From: a virus
Virus genome (UHGV): UHGV-2002320
Reading direction: 5' to 3' (one strand)
Length of the DNA: 13,111 bases
Shown one piece after another: positions 210-13,111 of the stretch (the first letter of the stretch is position 1; every line of letters begins with the position of its first letter). The notes beneath the pieces were generated by a model. That model was not told the DNA's origin and did not search any database. It was given only the letters and a program-made list of their open reading frames with translations. The position numbers and the translations under genes were made by a program.

Positions 210-228
210 ATGGTGCCGATAATAGGAG
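210..228. repeat. attR-like core: 19-bp direct repeat of the tRNA-Thr 3' end (ATGGTGCCGATAATAGGAG)
   Basis: Exact match to 13035..13053, which covers the last 18 nt of the tRNA plus 1 nt. Flanking bases differ on both sides (209 vs 13034, 229 vs 13054), so the repeat is sharply delimited. Confidence 0.75.
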
Positions 229-417
229 CAAAACAACATCGTAACCACCTGTATTTTATGGAAGTAATAAAATAAATTTGAAAAATGCCCCCATAAGTGC
301 CCCCTATCTCCACCACGAAGAGGATTCATAAATATTTATAATTTCAGGATACGTTAAACACTTCCCTAATTTTAATTACACCCTCACATTAGAAAATTTA
401 CGATATAATTATGATAA

Positions 418-450
418 CACCAGTCATATTATCATGACTGGTGCTTTTGG
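418..450. terminator. Stem-loop immediately downstream of the protease gene stop; possible bidirectional intrinsic terminator
   Basis: Perfect 10-bp inverted repeat CACCAGTCAT (418..427) / ATGACTGGTG (434..443) with a 6-nt loop. Followed by CTTTTGG on the + strand and by an AT-rich run on the - strand. The protease stop codon is at 451..453. Confidence 0.4.
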
Positions 451-2895
451 TTAAATTTCAATAACATTCTCTATTTCTGTGTCAATTTTTAATAACTGAC
501 TAATTTCATTGTGAACTTCTAGATTATTTTCTTTAGTTTCAATAGAGATAATCAAACTAAATCTTGCAATACTAGATTGCCTATTTTCTTTTTTTAGCTC
601 CTTCCACCATCCACTCACAGGATAAATGGCTATGAACTTTTTGTCAGCTAATTCTAATGCTGTTCCGCTCCAAATGTCGCTATGAATAGACCCTCTATTC
701 CTTAGGGTTGGTCCTAATAACCATTTATTAGCATCACTTTCTCCAGCATCAAACTCTTGGTTTTCTTCTTTAAACTTTTTATTTATTCTTGAAACAAATT
801 CTCCGGACTCTTCACCAGGGCTATTAAAATCAAATCTTAAACCGAAAGATCCATATTTATATTTATTATCCCAACCTCTTTCGCCTGGATTAGGCTCTAC
901 AAAATAAGATAACGTTACTCTTAACTTTACGTCCTCTCCACCAATTTTTTCTAATTCAGAGGAAGGCCATGGTAATGAATAAAGAATCATCTTGTTTAAC
1001 TTGCCTTCAACTGTGTAGGGCTGTATTGAATCTTCGACTATTAAATTAACAGATTGATCACCGCTTGAAATTGCTTTTGCTAAATTAGGGAAACCATAAC
1101 CTGACATTCTTAAAAGAAATTCCACATTCTGCTTTGTACGTAAAGGCTCATGTCTTTCGAGGATTTTCTTTGGCCAGGATGCGCTATGGACAACTAAAGC
1201 TCGGATTGTTTCAGGCCAATAATTTGGATACTGACTCCATAGTTTAGAGATGAAAAAAGCAGCCATACCTGTTGCAGCGCTTGTCTCAGAGAAACTACTA
1301 AAATACTCCCCTTTAGTGAATTCATGAGAAAGTGTTAATAAGCTAAGCTCTTCTAAATTAGCAGAAAAGTTGAGATGTGAATCATAACCAAAATTCCCTC
1401 CTTCAAAAACGACATCCGGCTTAAAAGGTGAATTATTTTTCCATATCCTAGATGTTGTAGATGATGGCCCTAAATCAGTTAGTTCAGCAATAACATCATA
1501 ACCATCTGTTATAACGTTATCTTCACTTGCCCAATATCCAACTGTTAGAGCATTATATGAATTAGCGGGATCTTCAATTGAATAAGTTATATTTGCATCC
1601 GGATAATCAGAAATTAGATTAGGAGGAAGATTGCCTGCAGATAATATAAATAATCTTTTCTCTGGATCGTCAGGACTACCTGAAGCAAGTCTGTCGATTG
1701 CTGCGGACCAACTAGTAGGCATCCCTCTTAAAGTATTTGGAGAGGACACTGCCATCGTAAATATCCGACGTTCTGAGGGTTGTTTGGCTTCTATATTGTA
1801 TATAGCATCAGTGGTAATAGCGCCATAAAGTTGAGGTTCATTTACACCAGTATCAGGTAAAATTTTAGCTGACTCAATAACTCCACTTATCGGCAATTCT
1901 TTAGACTGTATCGCGAATTTAAGATCACCAAATAATGCCAATCCAGCAATACCGGTTCCATGACCTTTTAAATCGCTATTCGCCCACTGAGGTTCGGCTA
2001 CAACTAGTGCATTTTCATTTACAAATGTATTAAGCAGTGGGTGCTGAGAGTTAATACCTGTATCAAGTATGCAAATAGGAATTAATGTATTTAGTTTTCT
2101 ATAAGTTATACCATTAACCCACTGAAAAGCTTCAGCTGGTTTCAAATCAAGAAAATCTACACTCACAGCTTTCGAGGGCCGAACTTCCGAAATAATCTCC
2201 GTCATCTGTTGAAGCAGCATTAACTGATGCATAGAAGCACAGACTATTTTTACAACTCTATCTTTAAAACTAAGTGTGCCTTGTTTAACTGTTATACCCA
2301 ACTGACCACATAGTTGTTCAAATTTATTCAGAAGTATTTCTAGTTCTATATCACTTGAGTCCAGCCATAACTCAAGATCATGTATTTTATAAATATCTTC
2401 AGGGAACTCATCCTGACTAAACCATAAAGCCCGAAAATTGCCATATTCTATATTAGATATGGATTCTATAAATGGTTGATTCTTCGGGTTACCTTTTTTT
2501 GTATTCTCAGTAGCATATTCTTGCAGAATCTTTTCAAGTTTAGAAAAACCGTCTACGGGCACAGAAACGTTTGCCATTGTCATACCATCTATAGTATTAA
2601 CAGACATTATTTTCATCCCATTTGCATCTAAACTTTTTAAAACCATTCGTTCTTTAATTTCTGGATTTTCTTGAAAAGTCATTACTACCTTTTGAGGTTC
2701 ATTCCCTTTTCCTAATAACATCTCCACTGTTTTTTTTCTTTCATTATATATATTTATAGCAGATTCTAAACTATGCCTCACTTTTGCAAAATGGGCATTT
2801 CTGTTAACAGGACTTTTACCCTTTTTCGGGCCCCCTGTAACTGGTTTATAGTCAATAAGCTTCTGTGGTAAGTCGATTTTAATGTGAGCCTTCAT
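451..2895 (-). CDS. Subtilisin-like (S8 family) serine protease, 814 aa, with long N- and C-terminal extensions
   Basis: Catalytic motifs in canonical Asp-His-Asn-Ser order: ICILDTGI (Asp278, codon 2062..2064), GHGTGIAG (His312, 1960..1962), ILSAGN (oxyanion Asn422), SETSAATGMAAF (Ser539, codon 1279..1281). About 270 aa precede the Asp motif and about 270 aa follow the Ser motif. Start lies 18 bp after the ATPase stop with an AGGGA ribosome-binding site. Markedly AT-rich compared with the element core. Confidence 0.85.
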   Translation of the reverse strand: MKAHIKIDLPQKLIDYKPVTGGPKKGKSPVNRNAHFAKVRHSLESAINIYNERKKTVEMLLGKGNEPQKVVMTFQENPEIKERMVLKSLDANGMKIMSVNTIDGMTMANVSVPVDGFSKLEKILQEYATENTKKGNPKNQPFIESISNIEYGNFRALWFSQDEFPEDIYKIHDLELWLDSSDIELEILLNKFEQLCGQLGITVKQGTLSFKDRVVKIVCASMHQLMLLQQMTEIISEVRPSKAVSVDFLDLKPAEAFQWVNGITYRKLNTLIPICILDTGINSQHPLLNTFVNENALVVAEPQWANSDLKGHGTGIAGLALFGDLKFAIQSKELPISGVIESAKILPDTGVNEPQLYGAITTDAIYNIEAKQPSERRIFTMAVSSPNTLRGMPTSWSAAIDRLASGSPDDPEKRLFILSAGNLPPNLISDYPDANITYSIEDPANSYNALTVGYWASEDNVITDGYDVIAELTDLGPSSTTSRIWKNNSPFKPDVVFEGGNFGYDSHLNFSANLEELSLLTLSHEFTKGEYFSSFSETSAATGMAAFFISKLWSQYPNYWPETIRALVVHSASWPKKILERHEPLRTKQNVEFLLRMSGYGFPNLAKAISSGDQSVNLIVEDSIQPYTVEGKLNKMILYSLPWPSSELEKIGGEDVKLRVTLSYFVEPNPGERGWDNKYKYGSFGLRFDFNSPGEESGEFVSRINKKFKEENQEFDAGESDANKWLLGPTLRNRGSIHSDIWSGTALELADKKFIAIYPVSGWWKELKKENRQSSIARFSLIISIETKENNLEVHNEISQLLKIDTEIENVIEI

Positions 2896-2913
2896 AATCC
2901 AGTCCCTATGTAA

Positions 2914-3897
2914 TTATTTATATGCTTTTCTCTCTTCTAAAACCTTTTGAAGGTCTATTTGATCTATTTTCTTTAAATTATTGATAATAGCAAATTTTAT
3001 CGCATCATCACAACTTTTTGAAACCTCTGAATAACTTAGCCCCTCAGCGCTACTCAACAAACTCCCCCACTCTTTTACGTTTAATTCAAAAGAATGATAT
3101 TTTGACTTAATTAATTCAATTAAGTTATCTTTTTCAGGCAAAGAATATTCGATCACATCATCAAACCTACGATATAAAGCACTATCCAGGATTTCTTTAT
3201 GATTCGTCGCACTAATAATCAAACTATCAGAATGATGCTCATCTAATAATTGTAAAAAAGTATTTAAAACACGGCGAATCTCACCTACATCATTATGCAT
3301 GCTTCTTTTTGAACCTATTGTATCGAACTCGTCGAACAAATAGACCCCTCTATTCATATTGATATATTCAAAAATACTTCGTAGTTTAGACGATGTTTCT
3401 CCCATAAATTTCGTTATAAGAGAATCCATTCTTACAGTAAAAAGAGGGAAATGTAATTCATGAGCAACAACGCTTGCCGTTAAAGTTTTACCAGTGCCTG
3501 GTGGACCATATAGTAGTAAATGTCTTCTAGGGACAAGACCATACTGTCTAATTTTAGATGCATTTTTATTCTCTTCTAAAAAACGCAATATCTTACTCCT
3601 GACGTCATTTGAAAGAATGACATCTGAAATTTTATTAGTCGGATGAGAAACAGTAAAAAGATCATTAGAGGAATGATTTATTACAGCAGTACTCGACGAA
3701 AGTACTCGAGGGTAATTGTTCCCTTCGTTAGCTTGTAACTTAGCCTTTTCTACAAGCAATCTCAACTCATCGGCGAATTTTCCATGACCTATCTTTGCTT
3801 CATGAGCAGCAATCTGTAGTACTACAGTCAAAAACTTGCGATCATCGCGTGCGATAAAATTTTTTACTAACGCTTTTAGTTGGTTTGCACTAGCCAT
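2914..3897 (-). CDS. AAA+ ATPase of the classic AAA clade, 327 aa
   Basis: Walker A GPPGTGKT (3484..3507), Walker B VYLFDEFD, sensor-1 ISATN, arginine-finger region SALYRRF. About 120 aa N-domain precedes the ATPase core. AGGA ribosome-binding site 8 nt upstream of the ATG. First gene of a two-gene operon with the protease. Confidence 0.9.
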   Translation of the reverse strand: MASANQLKALVKNFIARDDRKFLTVVLQIAAHEAKIGHGKFADELRLLVEKAKLQANEGNNYPRVLSSSTAVINHSSNDLFTVSHPTNKISDVILSNDVRSKILRFLEENKNASKIRQYGLVPRRHLLLYGPPGTGKTLTASVVAHELHFPLFTVRMDSLITKFMGETSSKLRSIFEYINMNRGVYLFDEFDTIGSKRSMHNDVGEIRRVLNTFLQLLDEHHSDSLIISATNHKEILDSALYRRFDDVIEYSLPEKDNLIELIKSKYHSFELNVKEWGSLLSSAEGLSYSEVSKSCDDAIKFAIINNLKKIDQIDLQKVLEERKAYK

Positions 3898-3948
3898 GAT
3901 TTAGTCCTGGTTTAAAGGCATTTAAAATCGTTTGAAAAGCCCCTCATG

Positions 3949-3974
3949 ATCATATCATTACAGACTTACTTCAA
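3949..3974 (-). promoter_or_regulatory. Candidate sigma70 promoter for the ATPase-protease operon
   Basis: On the minus strand: TTGAAG (-35, + coords 3969..3974) and extended -10 TGaTATGAT (+ coords 3949..3957), about 50 bp upstream of the ATPase ATG. The 14-nt spacer is short, so this is a weak prediction. Confidence 0.25.
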
Positions 3975-4197
3975 TCCAGAAAGCAGCATCGAGCAATTAA
4001 ACAAAATTAGTCAGCGTGCGCAGCCCCGCACGCCTGCCTGCTTCGCTTAACAGACTGGTTTTCATGCATGCCATAAATCGTCTCAGAAGCCACCAAACAA
4101 GGGCTTTCTCGTCAAAAATGGTGCATAAGACTCATGCGTTTTCATGCGCCATAGACATGCACTCATGCGCTCTCAGGCCAGCCAGGGAAAAGGTGTT

Positions 4198-4223
4198 AAA
4201 AATCCCGGTACTCGACCGGGATT
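4198..4223 (-). terminator. Intrinsic terminator downstream of the late (sid/psu/ogr-like) operon
   Basis: 9-bp perfect inverted repeat AATCCCGGT (4201..4209) / ACCGGGATT (4215..4223) with a 5-nt loop. On the minus strand the stem is followed by TTTTTAAC. It sits 20 bp after the Ogr-like stop at 4243. Confidence 0.45.
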
Positions 4224-4242
4224 ACTTGGGCGTTTTTTCTAA

Positions 4243-4524
4243 TCAGACAGGAATCTGCTGACGGCTTGACAGTTTTGACGCGGAGCCATAGCGATTGAGC
4301 GTTTGCTGTTGTTTTACCGGGGTTTGTGATTTGTCTGGTTCCTGTTCATTGCGCCGGGGTTTCATGATTATCTTATCCACACTCTCCAGTGCCGTAAATG
4401 TGCAGGAACATTCCAGATTCTGGCACTGATACCACGAGCGTTTAACTGACGGAGCTTCATAGGCTGCTGTTCTGGCGTGTGCAACTGTACCGCATTCCGG
4501 ACATTTAAGTGCCATTAATATCAC
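4243..4524 (-). CDS. Ogr/Delta-family zinc-finger late transcription activator, 93 aa
   Basis: CPECGTVAHARTAAY...YQCQNLECSCTF matches the Cys-x2-Cys...Cys-x4-Cys signature and surrounding residues of P2 Ogr / P4 Delta (AHART, QCQN, ESV..I.KP). Overlaps the preceding gene by 4 bp (ATGA). Confidence 0.8.
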   Translation of the reverse strand: MILMALKCPECGTVAHARTAAYEAPSVKRSWYQCQNLECSCTFTALESVDKIIMKPRRNEQEPDKSQTPVKQQQTLNRYGSASKLSSRQQIPV

Positions 4525-5072
4525 TCCTGTATATCGTTAATGTCATTCAGGCGTTGCTGAAAACGCAGATGTTGTGCCGGGGTGTAAGAACCCTGGCAAT
4601 CACGAATCATCCCGGGGTCAGGCATCAAACCGGATTCATCCAGGATCTCACGATAATCCCCGGCAATTTCAGGCGGTGTTATTGCCAGCTGGCGAACCAG
4701 AGCACTGCGTAATATACGGGACGCAACGTCAACCCCTCCGCGCCCCTTCAGGAACGGAGCCAGTGCAGATGTCAGGGCTGCCCCATTCGCCTGCATAAAA
4801 TTGCTGAGAGCGGCTTCTGTGCAGGCCTCCATCAGTAAATGCTGCGCGTAAATGCATTCGCGCGCAGCACAGTTAATTTGCCATTTCAGCACATCCAGAC
4901 GTTCCCGCAGTAATTCGAGCTGTCGGGCATAATCTGCTGGTTTTTCTGTGGCAGCGAGGAGAGATGTTATCTGTTGTTCAACGGCTTTTCGGCTCTCACT
5001 ATGTCCGGCCCACAGAATACGGGCATTCCGAAAACTGGTAAGTGCCTGGTCAGGCGTGCCTCGGGCCGTCAT
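4521..5072 (-). CDS. psu: Psu-like protein (polarity suppression / capsid decoration family), 183 aa
   Basis: Size and operon position match P4 Psu. Recognisable similarity to remembered P4 Psu segments (L..LR....V.KWQ.N.AA; G.AL..ALAP.L; TPAQ). Start overlaps the upstream gene stop by 4 bp. Confidence 0.6.
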   Translation of the reverse strand: MTARGTPDQALTSFRNARILWAGHSESRKAVEQQITSLLAATEKPADYARQLELLRERLDVLKWQINCAARECIYAQHLLMEACTEAALSNFMQANGAALTSALAPFLKGRGGVDVASRILRSALVRQLAITPPEIAGDYREILDESGLMPDPGMIRDCQGSYTPAQHLRFQQRLNDINDIQE

Positions 5073-5812
5073 ACTGCTTTCTCCTTCTCAGCGAGTTCCT
5101 GACGAACCTTAATTTTATGCATAGCTGCCGGAGAGAGTTGATTACTGAAATCCAGACGCGCCGCATAATCCGGGGCAACTCCCGCCAGTTTAAACACCGG
5201 GTCCTGCTCAGGCATCGCATCGTTAGCCAGAGCCGGTCTGGTGATATGTTTATGAATAAAGTCTTTCAGCACTGTGTCCGGGTCATTAACTGAATTCACC
5301 ACACCCACAACGGCACTGGCTTCCCGGCCCATTGTGGATTTAAGCAGGCTCAGCGTCTGAATAAGCGCTTTTCCATGCGACTGCATAAAATCTTCCCAGA
5401 TTTGTTTTGCGCGAATATCCACAAGAATATTATGCGCGTGGATATACTTTCCGGCTAATTCTGCAGCTTTCTGCGGCAAAAGTGCATTTTCGCTTTCCTG
5501 AGCCGCCAGCAGCTCATCAAAATCCTCAAGCGTTTCTCGTCCCAGCGCAATTTCCGTGCGCAGTTTTTTCATTTCCTTTGAGACCACGCCCTGACTTTCA
5601 CGAAACAGCGTGCGCCACTCCTCATTCAGTGTGTTCGTCGTGGCTTCCATTTCAGCGCGACGCTGGCGGATTGTCGCAATATTATCCGCTGCCGCTTTCT
5701 GCTGACGACGTGCTTCAAGCCATGCGTTTCTGGCTGTGTTCATGGTTTCCAGTGCCCGCTGCGTTACAGCCGGAAAAGTGGAAAGGTTGTTATTCACTGC
5801 GGTGTTGTTCAT
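5069..5812 (-). CDS. Sid-like (capsid size determination / external scaffold) or Psu-family paralog, 247 aa
   Basis: Size is close to P4 Sid (244 aa) and it is the first gene of the late operon, preceded by TGT-N12-ACA dyads. Strong ribosome-binding site (AGGAG, 5-nt spacing). The assignment rests on position and size, not on motifs. Confidence 0.45.
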   Translation of the reverse strand: MNNTAVNNNLSTFPAVTQRALETMNTARNAWLEARRQQKAAADNIATIRQRRAEMEATTNTLNEEWRTLFRESQGVVSKEMKKLRTEIALGRETLEDFDELLAAQESENALLPQKAAELAGKYIHAHNILVDIRAKQIWEDFMQSHGKALIQTLSLLKSTMGREASAVVGVVNSVNDPDTVLKDFIHKHITRPALANDAMPEQDPVFKLAGVAPDYAARLDFSNQLSPAAMHKIKVRQELAEKEKAV

Positions 5813-10106: not shown

Positions 10107-10198
10107 CTTCGTTACCTCTTATAACGGTTGGTTAAATGCCCGATTTGTGTTCCCGCACAATCGGGCATTGCTTTTACAAGCGAACTATACTTACAATG

Positions 10199-10238
10199 GT
10201 AATTACCATGTAGTCATCATATTCTAGGGTAATTACCA
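10199..10238. promoter_or_regulatory. Two copies of the self-complementary 10-mer GGTAATTACC spaced 30 bp apart; candidate operators in a divergent promoter region
   Basis: GGTAATTACC at 10199..10208 and 10229..10238, each embedded in the longer direct repeat GGTAATTACCATGT. The second copy overlaps the start codon of the ribbon-helix-helix-like gene. Confidence 0.4.
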
Positions 10239-10411
10239 TGTCAACACCACAAGAGAAACGTTCTCCACCATTCCAAATGCGTCTTACCGACGATTTTAGG
10301 TTGCAACTCGAAAACGAAATGCGCAAAGATGGAGATAGCGCGTTGGCAACTTGGATTAAAAGAATTTTACGCAAAGAACTCCAATCACGCGGGATTGACC
10401 CTAAAGGCTAA
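10238..10411 (+). CDS. Arc/MetJ-type ribbon-helix-helix DNA-binding protein, 57 aa, below the ORF-track cutoff; candidate repressor
   Basis: Manual translation MSTPQEKRSPPFQMRLTDDFRLQLENEMRKDGDSALATWIKRILRKELQSRGIDPKG. The segment FQMRL..DFRLQLENEMRKDGDSALATWIKRIL aligns by eye with the Arc repressor strand-helix-helix (FNLRWPREVLDLVRKVAEENGRSVNSEIYQRV). The only + strand gene in the element. Confidence 0.5.
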   Translation: MSTPQEKRSPPFQMRLTDDFRLQLENEMRKDGDSALATWIKRILRKELQSRGIDPKG

Positions 10412-10859: not shown

Positions 10860-11684
10860 TTAGTTAAACTTAATGTTTTTCATGCAACTACGTAGCAAAC
10901 TAACAACAGTATCATAGCTCAAAGGCGGTTCTCCGGTCTTAGGCCAGAACTCACTGGCATGTTGAAAAAGATAATCAGCTATCGCTGCTGGACTCTCTCT
11001 TCTTAGCCTCATATCACGATGATAGAGCGAAATAATAGCCATGAGTATTTCAGCTCGAGGAACAGCATGTTTTTGTTTTTGCGCCTCAGATTGTGATTTA
11101 TATTTATTGGCGTTTTTTATCCGCTTTTGTTCGCATAAGACTATATCAATGAATTTTTGAATCTGTACCTTTGTAATCCACAAAACCTCAAAAAGATAAT
11201 AATTTTCTTTTTCATCATAATTTACATAAAGAATTACCTTACAATTTATATTAGGCGTACCCGCCAGTAGAAAATGAATAGGCCAGGAATCCGGTTGCCC
11301 CTCATGCTTAACTAACAGATCTTTATATTCATAATCAACAGCCCATAAACCGGATATGAAGCATCGAATAAAACCATTTTTATCAATTAAATTATCTTCA
11401 TCAGGGATTCTTATAGAACTTAAGTCTGACAACATAATATTGCCATTTCTATCTCGTGGTAAATATTTCAGATTAGATAAGAACTCATCCATTTGACCAT
11501 CAATCTTCAAACCACATGAAACATCATACTCATCATCATGGAATTCCATGCATAGCTCTACATCTCGTTCTCTGGCAAACCAGAGTATATCCTTTTCACT
11601 ACAACCAATTTTTTCTGAAGCTTCATCCAACTGGTAGTAATCTCTGAGCAGAGAATCAGTATTATTAATTTTTAAAATATTCAT
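10860..11684 (-). CDS. Hypothetical protein, 274 aa, AT-rich orphan cargo gene directly downstream of the integrase
   Basis: Long ORF whose ATG overlaps the integrase stop (ATGA at 11681..11684). Composition is strongly AT-biased compared with the element core. No catalytic or binding motif recognised. Confidence 0.7.
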   Translation of the reverse strand: MNILKINNTDSLLRDYYQLDEASEKIGCSEKDILWFARERDVELCMEFHDDEYDVSCGLKIDGQMDEFLSNLKYLPRDRNGNIMLSDLSSIRIPDEDNLIDKNGFIRCFISGLWAVDYEYKDLLVKHEGQPDSWPIHFLLAGTPNINCKVILYVNYDEKENYYLFEVLWITKVQIQKFIDIVLCEQKRIKNANKYKSQSEAQKQKHAVPRAEILMAIISLYHRDMRLRRESPAAIADYLFQHASEFWPKTGEPPLSYDTVVSLLRSCMKNIKFN

Positions 11685-12868
11685 TTATGAGTACCAATTT
11701 GCTCAGATAAATAATTAGCATACCATTGCATCATTTCTCTTCTCCCTTCGAGATATTGGGCATGGTTATAAATTCCACGAATAGAGTTTTTGTCCGAATG
11801 AGCAAGCTGGGTTTCAATCCAAGCGCTGTTAAATCCTTTCTCATGTAGGATTGTACTCATCGTATGCCTGAAACCATGCCCCGTAACACGCCCTGCATAT
11901 CCAATACGTTTAAACACCTGATTAATGCTTGCTTCACTCATAAATTTGCTGGGATCGTTGCGTCCAGGGAACATCAGCGGGTAGTTCCCAGTTAGTTCTT
12001 TCAAACTTTTGAGATGGGATAATGCTTGTTTTGACAACGGGACAATATGGCTCCTACGCATTTTCATACGTTCTTTTGGGATCTCCCACACCGCATTATC
12101 AAAATCCACCTCTCGCCACTCACCTGCTCGTAGTTCTCCAGTTCGTAGACCTGTCAGGATAAGTAAATGCGCCCCCAACAATACAATTGGACTTCCTGAA
12201 TAAGAATTAAGGGCATTAAAGAACTCCGGTAGTTCGTTGGCTTTGAGGAATGGATAGTGGACTGCTTCATGTCCTTGCATCGCACTGGCAAGATCCGGTG
12301 CCGGATTGTAGATTGCCCTACCCGTTACGATGGCATAGCGAAAAACTTCACCGCATCGCTGACGGACTTTCTTCGCTTTCTCCATAGCGCCTCGAGCTTC
12401 TATCAACCTCAGAACTTCAAGCAGTTCAAGGGGCTGAATATCAGCTATAGGTCTGTGCCCAATATGCGGGAAAATGTCTTTCTCGAATGCCTCAATGATG
12501 TCGGAAGCATAGCCCTCAGACCATTTGGGTGATTTCATTTTGTGCCACTCTAACGCCACTTCTCTGAATGGGTTAAGTGTCTCACTCGCTGCATTTAAAG
12601 CCTGCTTTTTGGCTTTTTTGACTTCGCCGGGATCTTCACCTGCTGCGAGTAGTTTCTTCGCGTCTTCTCGTTTTTGTCTGGCATCAGCAAGTGTGACTGT
12701 TGGATAAACACCAAAGGACAATCGTTTCTCTTTACCAGCAAAACGGTATTTCATACGCCAGTAACGCGAGCCATTAGGTTCGACCTGAAGGTATAGGCCA
12801 CCTCCATCAAACAGCTTGTAGCTCTTCTCTTTTCCTTTCGCAGCTTCAACCTTGCGGGCATTCAGCAT
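11681..12868 (-). CDS. int: P4-type tyrosine integrase (about 395 aa from the likely ATG; the ORF track extends to a TTG at 12940)
   Basis: N-terminal region (M)LNARKVEAAKGKEKSYKLFDGGGLYLQVEPNGSRYWRMKYRFAGKEKRLSFGVYP is the hallmark of P4-family integrases. C-terminal catalytic region contains HGFRHT and the LAHSD...YNH segment. Lies next to the tRNA 3' end in the same orientation. Confidence 0.9.
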   Translation of the reverse strand: MLNARKVEAAKGKEKSYKLFDGGGLYLQVEPNGSRYWRMKYRFAGKEKRLSFGVYPTVTLADARQKREDAKKLLAAGEDPGEVKKAKKQALNAASETLNPFREVALEWHKMKSPKWSEGYASDIIEAFEKDIFPHIGHRPIADIQPLELLEVLRLIEARGAMEKAKKVRQRCGEVFRYAIVTGRAIYNPAPDLASAMQGHEAVHYPFLKANELPEFFNALNSYSGSPIVLLGAHLLILTGLRTGELRAGEWREVDFDNAVWEIPKERMKMRRSHIVPLSKQALSHLKSLKELTGNYPLMFPGRNDPSKFMSEASINQVFKRIGYAGRVTGHGFRHTMSTILHEKGFNSAWIETQLAHSDKNSIRGIYNHAQYLEGRREMMQWYANYLSEQIGTHK

Positions 12869-13035
12869 CATTGGGGGCACATTTCCTAGACCGAACAGAA
12901 CATGCCCCTGATTGTGCCCCCAACCGCGTGTTGATTTCAAGAGACAAGGGTTGACCTCAAACGTATGAAAACAACGTAATATATATGTTTTTAAATGATT
13001 TTGTTGATGTGGGTTGACTTGGGAAAACTAGGTGA

Positions 13036-13111
13036 TGGTGCCGATAATAGGAGTCGAACCTACGACCTTCGCATTACGAATGCGCTGCTCTACCAACTGA
13101 GCTATATCGGC
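13036..13111 (-). tRNA. thrW: tRNA-Thr, anticodon CGT, 76 nt with encoded CCA
   Basis: The reverse complement of 13036..13111 folds by eye into a cloverleaf: acceptor GCCGATA, D-arm GCTC/GAGC, anticodon loop TTCGTAA, T-arm GGTTCGA, 3' CCA. From memory it matches the enterobacterial thrW tRNA, a known integration site. Its last 18 nt are duplicated at 211..228. Confidence 0.9.

Follow-up and report, generated by a model that had tools for sequence, protein, structure and literature searches.

A Subtilase and AAA ATPase Gene Pair in a P4-like Satellite of Escherichia coli Is Very Probably an IetAS Toxin-Antitoxin and Anti-phage System

The large S8 subtilase encoded in the 13,111-nucleotide stretch of DNA analyzed here (the window) is very probably IetS, and the AAA ATPase encoded beside it IetA. 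Together they would constitute the known two-gene IetAS toxin-antitoxin/anti-phage pair, carried as cargo in the P4-like satellite hotspot at tRNA-Thr. A preliminary description of this DNA had singled out the protease as an unusually large subtilase with two long extensions; that observation holds, and it is accounted for by an already described family. The features discussed below are collected in Table 1.

IetAS is widespread, and its description dates back to 2009 and 2020. As reported in PMC8562856 and PMC13069673, it was first described as a toxin-antitoxin system for Ti-plasmid stability (Yamamoto et al. 2009), and, as reported in PMC13069673 and bioRxiv 10.1101/2022.08.27.505566, homologues of ietAS confer protection from phage (Gao et al. 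2020). Relatives show toxin-antitoxin behavior; a mutant of ietA could not be cloned, and an ATPase-competent IetA is apparently required (PMC13069673). IetS alone is toxic in these relatives and active IetA neutralizes it (PMC13069673, PMC8562856). The literature on IetAS relatives also indicates that defense needs protease activity; relatives act by abortive infection, with a phage protein as the trigger (bioRxiv 10.1101/2022.08.27.505566). An E. coli ietAS has been assayed, and ietAS has been discussed as residing in integrated elements, prophages among them (bioRxiv 10.1101/2022.08.21.504612). As of April 2026, the mechanism was still unexplained (PMC13069673), and no study of IetAS structure or mechanism was found in the literature searched.

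Table 1. Positions in the window of ietAS, its encoded domains and motifs, and the neighboring satellite features.
Feature	Position	Strand	Description
attR-side copy of 19-bp direct repeat	210..228	+	Exact 19-nt repeat bounding the satellite
ietS	451..2895	-	814-aa S8 subtilase, predicted cytoplasmic; predicted toxin/effector of IetAS; stop codon 451-453
C-terminal domain, IetS residues 606-814	454..1080	-	Predicted beta-sandwich, family-specific
Subtilase catalytic domain, IetS residues 271-605	1081..2085	-	
IetS S539 codon	1279-1281	-	
IetS N422 codon	1630-1632	-	
IetS H312 codon	1960-1962	-	
IetS D278 codon	2062-2064	-	
IetS residues 32-270	2086..2802	-	Modeled helix (32-61), ferredoxin-like modules (69-129 and 171-240) with a linker between them, two short helices
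IetS residues 1-31	2803..2895	-	Conserved N-terminal segment, then Lys/Gly/Pro-rich low-confidence linker (21-30)
ietA	2914..3897	-	327-aa single-module classical-clade AAA ATPase, predicted antitoxin/regulator; ends 18 nt upstream of ietS
ietA Walker B	3322-3333	-	
ietA pore loop 1	3400-3411	-	K-F-M-G
ietA Walker A	3484-3507	-	
Terminator-like hairpin	4013..4034	-	Between satellite delta gene and ietA; pattern scan only
Partner copy of 19-bp repeat	13035-13053		Overlaps tRNA-Thr 3' end
tRNA-Thr(CGU)	13036-13111		

Family Assignment of the Protease and Its Partner

The assignment rests on similarity that runs through the whole of both proteins. The PADLOC IetS model PDLC02198 matches the protease with an E value of 4.3e-45, pairing residues 90-802 with profile positions 77-779 of 795, and five further PADLOC IetS models match as well. 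PHROG 3964 spans residues 14-812 (E 5e-44). In both collections, therefore, the full-length similarity reaches the flanks beyond the S8 domain. IetA is matched by the PADLOC IetA model (1.5e-79), by Pfam AAA (7.9e-30), and by a full-length PHROG family of its own. In BLASTP comparisons with a Ti-plasmid pair, IetS aligns with the S8 protein from residue 133 to the C-terminus (35% identity, E 2e-136), and IetA aligns with the ATPase over its full length (45% identity, E 1e-101). The Ti-plasmid pair comes from Agrobacterium pTi1D1460 (214,233 bp), which may not be identical to pTiC58.

The best score against a PADLOC IetS profile is 152 bits, and this IetS therefore belongs to a divergent branch. 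The NCBIfam model IteS_antiphage (NF042956) gives 47.8 bits against a cut-off of 900, and IteA_antiphage (NF042959) gives 224.2 bits against a cut-off of 510; both matches are weak but specific and lie far below the equivalog level. In RefSeq, the pair carries only the names 'S8 family peptidase' and 'AAA family ATPase'.

The Satellite and Its Cargo Slot

The pair is the last cargo before the attR-side end of a satellite whose genes encode an integrase, an AlpA-like protein, a TOPRIM/DUF927 primase, a Sid-like protein, Psu, and Ogr/Delta, and which is flanked by the E. coli genes paoD and proA. The stretch from the psu/delta end to the attachment site holds variable cargo, as in the P4-like satellite hotspot, and the cargo has a GC content of 35% versus 56% in the satellite core. 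Sister satellites in other E. coli carry DRT3 or retron St85 in the slot occupied here by ietAS. The pair was found in 12 E. coli genomes, in at least one of which (strain Y5) the satellite has decayed.

These observations bear on what the pair does for its carrier. That ietAS here is mainly an addiction (stabilization) module that retains the satellite, and not a phage defense, is possible but somewhat unlikely. Such a role would agree with the origin of ietAS as a Ti-plasmid stability system, as the papers citing Yamamoto et al. 2009 report it (PMC8562856, PMC13069673), and with the Y5 satellite, which kept ietAS after losing its primase region. However, the same slot holds DRT3 or retron defense in the sister satellites, and this hotspot is a reservoir of anti-phage systems (Rousset et al. 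2022, PMC9122126). The protection against phage attributed to ietAS homologues (Gao et al. 2020, via PMC13069673 and bioRxiv 10.1101/2022.08.27.505566) also argues for defense, and neither role precludes the other.

Catalytic Domain and Protein Size

The Pfam Peptidase_S8 model matches IetS residues 274-601 with an E value of 1.2e-49, and conservation was scored in an alignment of 52 homologous sequences. The catalytic triad, placed by the preliminary description at roughly residues 278 to 539 of 814, was located in the sequence as D278, H312, and S539, and the alignment bears this out. D278, in a DTG motif, is kept in 51 of the 52 sequences, as is the oxyanion residue N422 in SAGN; H312 in HGT and S539 in TSAA are kept in every one. 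The Ser motif, ETSAATGMAAF at residues 537-547, does retain Thr-Ser as had been noted, but it should not be called degenerate: T538 and S539 never vary, and A540, A541, and T542 match what is usual in the family. By sequence, IetS is thus catalytically competent. A pseudo-protease reading was rejected because the triad is invariant.

The full-length structure prediction (pLDDT 86) comprises three parts: an N-flank, a catalytic domain that is modeled as a standard subtilase core, and a C-flank. The flanks are as long as first described, with 277 residues before the Asp and 275 after the Ser. However, the subtilase fold runs to about residue 605, and the true C-terminal extension is therefore about 210 residues (606-814) and not 270. 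The description of the protein as atypically large holds against classical subtilisins but fails against its own family, since 49 of the 52 aligned homologues are 813-842 residues long. Nearly all of more than 1,400 homologues fall in that range and have the same layout. The PADLOC IetS profiles span 749-855 positions, and the Ti-plasmid S8 protein has 836 residues. IetS is not, then, an atypical subtilase; its size and its two flanks are hallmarks conserved across the IetS family.

The Flanking Domains

The two flanks differ in their evolution: the N-flank evolves fast, whereas the C-domain is highly conserved. The N-flank nevertheless has a conserved start, with H4 kept in 46 of the 52 aligned sequences, Y/F16 in all 52, R32 in 43, and H35 in 50. 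Residues 1-20 form short strands with pLDDT values of 80-87 in the full-length model, but have a pLDDT of only about 42 when the N-flank is modeled alone. This order, present only in the full-length model, suggests that the N-terminal segment may dock on the catalytic or the C-terminal domain.

Residues 32-270 correspond to Pfam Y4kK_N (PF27160), a family annotated in many homologues; it is not assigned to this IetS in the precomputed Pfam listing. When the isolated N- and C-flanks of this IetS and of a distant homologue were scanned at E values up to 10 against a Pfam set without PF27160, only sub-threshold noise was returned (GUN4_N, IMS_C, and DUF5995). Among all PDB chains, the N-flank profile alignment gave only a chance-level match to a mechanosensitive channel (E 0.24), the C-flank profile alignment gave nothing at an E value of 10, and the whole IetS sequence gave nothing at 1e-3.

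The ferredoxin-like modules of the N-flank belong to a fold class (beta-alpha-beta-beta-alpha-beta) shared by I9 propeptides, ACT domains, and ribosomal protein S6. They could accordingly be read as a true I9-type propeptide whose autoproteolytic removal activates the enzyme, with IetA controlling maturation. In Foldseek, the whole model is matched best by pro-forms (ProN-Tk-SP, EpiP, PCSK9, and pro-subtilisin E), and module 2 immediately precedes the catalytic domain. Nonetheless, we consider this reading unlikely. The fold is generic, and ribosomal S6 and ACT domains score equally well or better. Scans at E values up to 10 with the same Pfam set found no match of the N-flank to Inhibitor_I9 or to any other family. 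In rigid superposition with unprocessed pro-subtilisin E, the catalytic domain alone aligns (253 residues), leaving the propeptide outside the alignment. Moreover, the model joins the N-flank to the first catalytic strand by a short stretch of high confidence, with no flexible, cleavable linker.

The C-flank is modeled as a beta-sandwich whose placement and packing against the catalytic domain resemble those of the C-domain in the subtilase KP-43. Its invariant motifs are TLSYF.EP.P, Y..S..LRF, GS.HSD.W.G.A, and P..GWW, and the domain defines about 1,400-1,900 protein clusters. No kexin/furin P-domain (Pfam P_proprotein) was found after the catalytic domain.

IetA and the Gene Pair

The best solved relatives of IetA are Cdc48, p97, VAT, and PAN (E 3e-50). 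Its pore loop, K163-F/Y164-M165-G166, does not vary among four distant IetA proteins, and IetA is a classical-clade AAA protein of the unfoldase type with an intact substrate-threading pore loop. An HbYX-type proteasome-docking motif at the C-terminus was considered and rejected as a feature of the family; the protein ends in A-Y-K, which is not common to three distant homologues. The pair is conserved elsewhere, with an AAA protein of 326-332 residues encoded directly upstream of an S8 protein of 816-830 residues in Polyangiaceae, Aliivibrio, and Geoalkalibacter. In the window, ietS is co-operonic with the gene of this soluble AAA ATPase, and the analysis supports the view that the protease works with its neighbor. 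A terminator-like hairpin upstream of ietA suggests that ietAS may be its own transcription unit; no promoter was confidently located in positions 3898-4012.

In an alternative reading, IetA and IetS would not be a simple toxin and antitoxin but would each contribute one half of an ATP-dependent protease, in which an IetA hexamer unfolds selected substrates and threads them into IetS, the flanks serve as a docking and gating platform, and lone IetS is toxic only because it is ungated. We regard this as quite unlikely. It would fit the assignment of IetA, by its solved relatives and by NCBIfam PAN and FtsH matches, to the classical AAA clade, in which PAN, FtsH, and Cdc48/VAT feed proteases. 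The conserved aromatic-hydrophobic-Gly element of pore loop 1, the strict 1:1 pairing of ietA and ietS across phyla, and the apparent requirement for an ATPase-competent IetA (PMC13069673) point the same way. On the other hand, IetS oligomerization or a proteolytic chamber finds no support here, the C-termini of four IetA homologues differ and share no conserved docking motif, and plain inhibition explains the published genetics equally well. The broader proposal is similarly improbable: that IetA and IetS represent an unrecognized class of ATP-dependent protease, in which the AAA protein docks on the IetS flanks and either threads substrates or mechanically controls an N-terminal plug, with phage infection switching the complex from idle to destructive. 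If it were true, residues 1-20 of IetS, ordered only in the whole protein, would be the handle or plug.

Cellular Location

The preliminary description had reasoned that a protease without a signal peptide would be cytoplasmic, and the analysis agrees. Kyte-Doolittle hydropathy reveals no signal peptide, with 12-residue windows scoring at most 0.27 within residues 1-70, and no membrane helix, with 19-residue windows peaking at 1.07 over the full length. The operon partner is an AAA ATPase, and relatives are intracellular toxins (PMC8562856, PMC13069673). The lysine-rich N-terminus noted earlier is present as KKGKSPVNRNAHFAKVR at residues 24-40. IetS is therefore predicted to be cytoplasmic. 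The combination of signal peptide, standard propeptide, and C-terminal anchor that marks an ordinary secreted subtilase was looked for and is absent from IetS, so the original observation is not refuted. An ordinary secreted or cell-surface subtilase with a signal peptide, a propeptide, and a C-terminal anchoring or PPC domain is effectively refuted by hydropathy and gene context: the C-domain does share the beta-sandwich fold class of PPC and collagen-binding domains of secreted proteases, and the N-modules that of propeptides, but IetS lacks a hydrophobic N-terminal segment or transmembrane helix, its N-terminus is conserved and charged, its obligate operon partner is a cytosolic AAA ATPase, and its relatives kill from inside the cell (PMC8562856).

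Proposed Mechanism and Significance

Taking the pair as IetAS, we propose that IetA spends ATP to keep IetS harmless, either remodeling the flanking domains of the protease or holding on to them. IetS would be freed by a phage cue or when IetA function is lost, and would then cleave cytoplasmic proteins and stop growth before the phage cycle is completed. The phages targeted probably include helper-type or competing phages of the satellite. The preliminary description suggested that the flanks could be sensor, autoinhibitory, or partner-binding domains; what the analysis assigned to them is folds. Judging from fold class and conservation, a regulatory, partner, or trigger interface more likely lies in the N-flank, and the C-domain more likely has a structural or substrate-positioning role.

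The main outcome is a corrected annotation, which identifies a probable IetAS pair in a P4-like satellite hotspot behind generic RefSeq names. The domain map of IetS and the pore loop of IetA offer concrete constructs for studying how an AAA ATPase restrains a subtilase, although the wider value is modest.

Comparison with Known Systems

The individual domains resemble those of better-known proteins in fold only. KP-43 (PDB 1wmd), Tk-SP, and kexin/furin are secreted, with a signal peptide and a cleaved propeptide, whereas IetS has no signal peptide and its C-domain has no sequence similarity to theirs. Compared with KP-43-type C-domains, that of IetS is about twice as long and has helical inserts and its own invariant motifs. 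The N-flank likewise has no sequence relationship to I9 propeptides, ACT domains, or ribosomal S6, shows no sign of docking or being cleaved as a propeptide would, or of binding ligands as ACT domains do, and corresponds to a separate Pfam family, Y4kK_N.

Among whole systems, the Agrobacterium Ti-plasmid ietAS has the same gene order, ATPase then protease, and encodes proteins of 328 and 836 residues versus 327 and 814 here. The two IetS proteins share the catalytic triad and the C-terminal motifs, but the first ~130 residues of the present IetS could not be aligned by BLASTP. The carriers also differ: a conjugative plasmid in the one case and a P4-like satellite of E. coli in the other. Mycoplasma TA132/133 is comparable by description: the gene for a large cytoplasmic S8 toxin (757 residues) follows that for an AAA ATPase of roughly 350 residues. 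The protease is toxic in E. coli and the ATPase neutralizes it, but host and size differ from those of the present pair (PMC8562856). The anti-phage IetAS of Gao et al. 2020 has the same system type and domain composition, and both proteins of the present pair are matched by the PADLOC models. Scores far below the NCBIfam equivalog cut-offs, however, indicate that the pair described here belongs to a subfamily different from the validated one.

The protease and its family

IetS was initially described as an atypical subtilase; its unusual size and flanks are explained by a known, widespread IetS family. At E < 1e-5, a database search yielded 1,403 homologues. The best 120 of these mostly cover 83-100% of the query at ~813-842 aa, with a shorter minority (including entries labelled partial) and a few of ~890 aa; 49 of the 52 aligned sequences are 813-842 aa long. 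Pfam assigns residues 274-601 to a Peptidase_S8 domain (E 1.2e-49), and the catalytic Asp, His, and Ser were located where the preliminary description had put them. The Ser motif, ETSAATGMAAF, had been called degenerate. It is the family consensus and therefore not degenerate: T538 and S539 are invariant in the 52-sequence alignment, and A540, A541, and T542 predominate. The long C-terminal extension stands, but at ~210 residues rather than 270, because the subtilase fold runs to ~605. A hydropathy scan of the whole protein detected neither a signal peptide nor a membrane helix. Within the first 70 residues the top 12-residue window reaches 0.27, and all 19-residue windows score at most 1.07, bearing out the earlier view that a signal peptide is lacking; the accompanying inference of a cytoplasmic protease is right.

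Distant homologues share 23% identity over the N-flank (residues 1-270) and 43% over both the catalytic domain and the C-domain (residues 606-814). A profile of the C-domain alone, searched against 1.84 billion cluster representatives, matched 1,874 proteins at E 1e-3, 1,427 at 1e-10, and 789 at 1e-30. In the best 150 matches, the domain lies at the C-terminus of proteins of ~820 aa, and shorter entries look like fragments. One 1,046-aa representative (P0137) carries the domain at residues 202-406 rather than at the C-terminus; either its gene is mis-called or fused, or the architecture is a different one.

Features of the satellite and of the ietAS gene products (nucleotide coordinates, or residues where indicated)
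Feature	Position	Strand	Description
Direct repeat, left	210-228		exact 19 bp (ATGGTGCCGATAATAGGAG); bounds 12.8-kb satellite
Palindrome	418-443		perfect 10-bp stem (CACCAGTCAT...ATGACTGGTG); 8 nt downstream of ietS stop, before att repeat
ietS	451..2895	-	ORF, 814 aa
IetS catalytic Asp	residue D278		in DTG; conserved in 51/52 homologues (alignment)
IetS catalytic His	residue H312		in HGT; conserved in 52/52 homologues (alignment)
IetS oxyanion Asn	residue N422		in SAGN; conserved in 51/52 homologues (alignment)
IetS catalytic Ser	residue S539		in TSAA; conserved in 52/52 homologues (alignment)
ietA	2914..3897	-	327-aa AAA ATPase, 18 nt upstream of ietS
IetA Walker A	residues 131-138		GPPGTGKT
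IetA Walker B	from residue 189		DEFD
Protein at position of P4 Sid	5069-5812	-	RefSeq 'septation initiation protein'
GGTAATTACCATGT, two exact copies	10198-10211, 10228-10241		30 bp apart, nearly palindromic
Low-GC ORF	10860-11684	-	274 aa, ~34% GC
Integrase	11681-12940	-	419 aa as mechanical ORF from TTG; RefSeq 396 aa (1,191 nt)
Direct repeat, right	13035-13053		copy of the left repeat
tRNA-Thr(CGU)	13036-13111		

Predicted anatomy of the flanks

Among PDB chains, no structure of IetS or IetA was found. The IetS model generated by AlphaFold2 from the 52-sequence alignment is confident, with a mean pLDDT of 86.2 and a pTM of 0.73. In this model, the C-flank is predicted to be a beta-sandwich packed like that of the subtilase KP-43. 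It differs from its KP-43 counterpart in being about twice as long, in its helical inserts, and in its own invariant motifs (TLSYF.EP.P, Y..S..LRF, GS.HSD.W.G.A, and P..GWW).

The top Foldseek matches to the whole model are subtilase pro-forms, which points to a predicted N-flank fold class that agrees with subtilisin propeptides but is generic. A classical propeptide is nonetheless disfavoured: a Pfam scan gave no Inhibitor_I9 match, unprocessed pro-subtilisin E aligns with the catalytic domain only (253 residues), and the junction to the catalytic domain is short and ordered in the model. The region has its own recent Pfam entry, Y4kK_N (PF27160). Near the N-terminus, H4, an aromatic residue at position 16, and then R32 and H35 are conserved in the alignment. 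Residues 1-20 (window 2836-2895) have pLDDT values of 80-87 in the full-length model versus ~42 when the N-flank is modelled alone. Their confident ordering depends on the full-length context, which suggests that they dock onto the remainder of the protein.

The ATPase partner and a proposed mechanism

IetA belongs to the classical clade of AAA ATPases and has a single module. Among solved structures, its nearest relatives are Cdc48/p97, VAT, and PAN (E down to 3e-50), and its next-best NCBIfam families are PAN and FtsH. Four distant IetAs share an invariant pore-loop-1 motif, K163-F/Y164-M165-G166, which aligns with the W-F-G pore loop of Cdc48 D2; such a motif is the hallmark of an unfoldase that threads proteins. 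An AAA ATPase of 326-332 aa likewise precedes the protease in three distant taxa, Polyangiaceae, Aliivibrio, and Geoalkalibacter.

In published relatives, the protease is toxic by itself and is neutralised by the ATPase (PMC8562856; PMC13069673); attempts to clone a mutated ietA failed, and defence requires protease activity (PMC13069673). A Bacillus ietAS acts by abortive infection, and expression of a single phage protein elicits toxicity (bioRxiv 10.1101/2022.08.27.505566). As of April 2026, the mechanism was given as unknown (PMC13069673), and our literature search found no structural study of IetAS. The main rival to a toxin restrained by its partner, also compatible with the present data, is that IetA and IetS form a true ATP-dependent protease machine. 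We favour restraint, in which ATP-driven IetA would hold or remodel IetS through the flanking domains. A phage cue or IetA failure would then release IetS, which would cleave cytoplasmic proteins. The variable N-flank may form the interface for regulation or triggering, and the C-domain, which is conserved, may be a structural or substrate-positioning element. The domain map of IetS provides testable constructs for the mechanism of the whole IetAS family.

The P4-like satellite and its cargo slot

The window is a P4-like satellite in E. coli, integrated at tRNA-Thr(CGU) in the paoD/proA interval. It encodes an integrase, an AlpA-like regulator, a TOPRIM/DUF927 primase, a Sid-like protein, Psu, and an Ogr/Delta protein. 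Immediately beyond its left end is a truncated LysR gene fragment. The ietAS pair sits between delta and the att end, with a GC content of 35% versus 56% for the satellite core. Between the pair and delta there is a terminator-like hairpin, and the palindrome beyond ietS may be a bidirectional terminator. This slot is the P4 defence hotspot of Rousset et al. (PMC9122126).

This ietAS occurs at ≥99.9% identity in 12 of 5,426 complete E. coli genomes, seven of which contain 98-100% of the window. At least one of the 12, strain Y5, carries a deleted satellite derivative (L008, locus 10001-17835) in which Sid is truncated and the primase region lost, while ietAS, psu, delta, and the integrase are kept. 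This pattern is compatible with addictive or selected cargo. In sister satellites of other E. coli strains, DRT3 (drt3a/drt3b) or a retron St85 system replaces ietAS on a backbone that is 99.2-99.6% identical over the shared part (window 229-4240 against 1085-5300 of comparison locus L002). This exchange is a clean case of cargo swapping at the P4 hotspot.

Several other features merit mention. Pfam, PHROGs, and PADLOC gave no match for the low-GC ORF that separates the integrase from the AlpA-like regulator; it is conserved across sister satellites, where it is annotated 'hypothetical protein', and is a possible second accessory gene. The RefSeq name 'septation initiation protein' looks like a misreading of 'Sid', because the protein has a weak Psu family match (1.8e-09) and occupies the position of P4 Sid. 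The GGTAATTACCATGT copies may be operator sites; they lie downstream of the AlpA-like regulator gene, in the intergenic region that separates it from the Icd-like gene. The true integrase start is probably the downstream one.

Comparison with known IetAS systems

According to PMC13069673 and PMC8562856, ietAS was first reported from a Ti plasmid as a toxin-antitoxin system in which the serine protease is the toxin and the AAA ATPase the antitoxin; its anti-phage activity was shown later. One study cloned and tested an E. coli ietAS, and discussed ietAS as residing in integrated elements, prophages among them (bioRxiv 10.1101/2022.08.21.504612). Our tblastn search against plasmids matched 488 records, including 54 Agrobacterium plasmids. 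A 214,233-bp Ti plasmid carries the same gene pair, a 328-aa ATPase and an 836-aa S8 peptidase. The latter is 35% identical to IetS from residue 133 to the C-terminus (E 2e-136), and the ATPase is 45% identical to IetA over its full length.

The NCBIfam equivalogs for the validated anti-phage system match only weakly, at 47.8 bits where the cut-off is 900 and at 224 where it is 510. Scores so far below cut-off mark the present pair as a divergent branch of the IetAS family, which accounts for its generic RefSeq names. PADLOC defence models name both proteins (IetA, E 1.5e-79; IetS, E 4.3e-45), with IetS residues 90-802 matching profile positions 77-779 of 795, and the phage-protein families PHROG 3757 and 3964 give full-length matches for the two. 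The novelty of the pair is low, because systems of this type are known and it is recognised by standard defence-annotation models.
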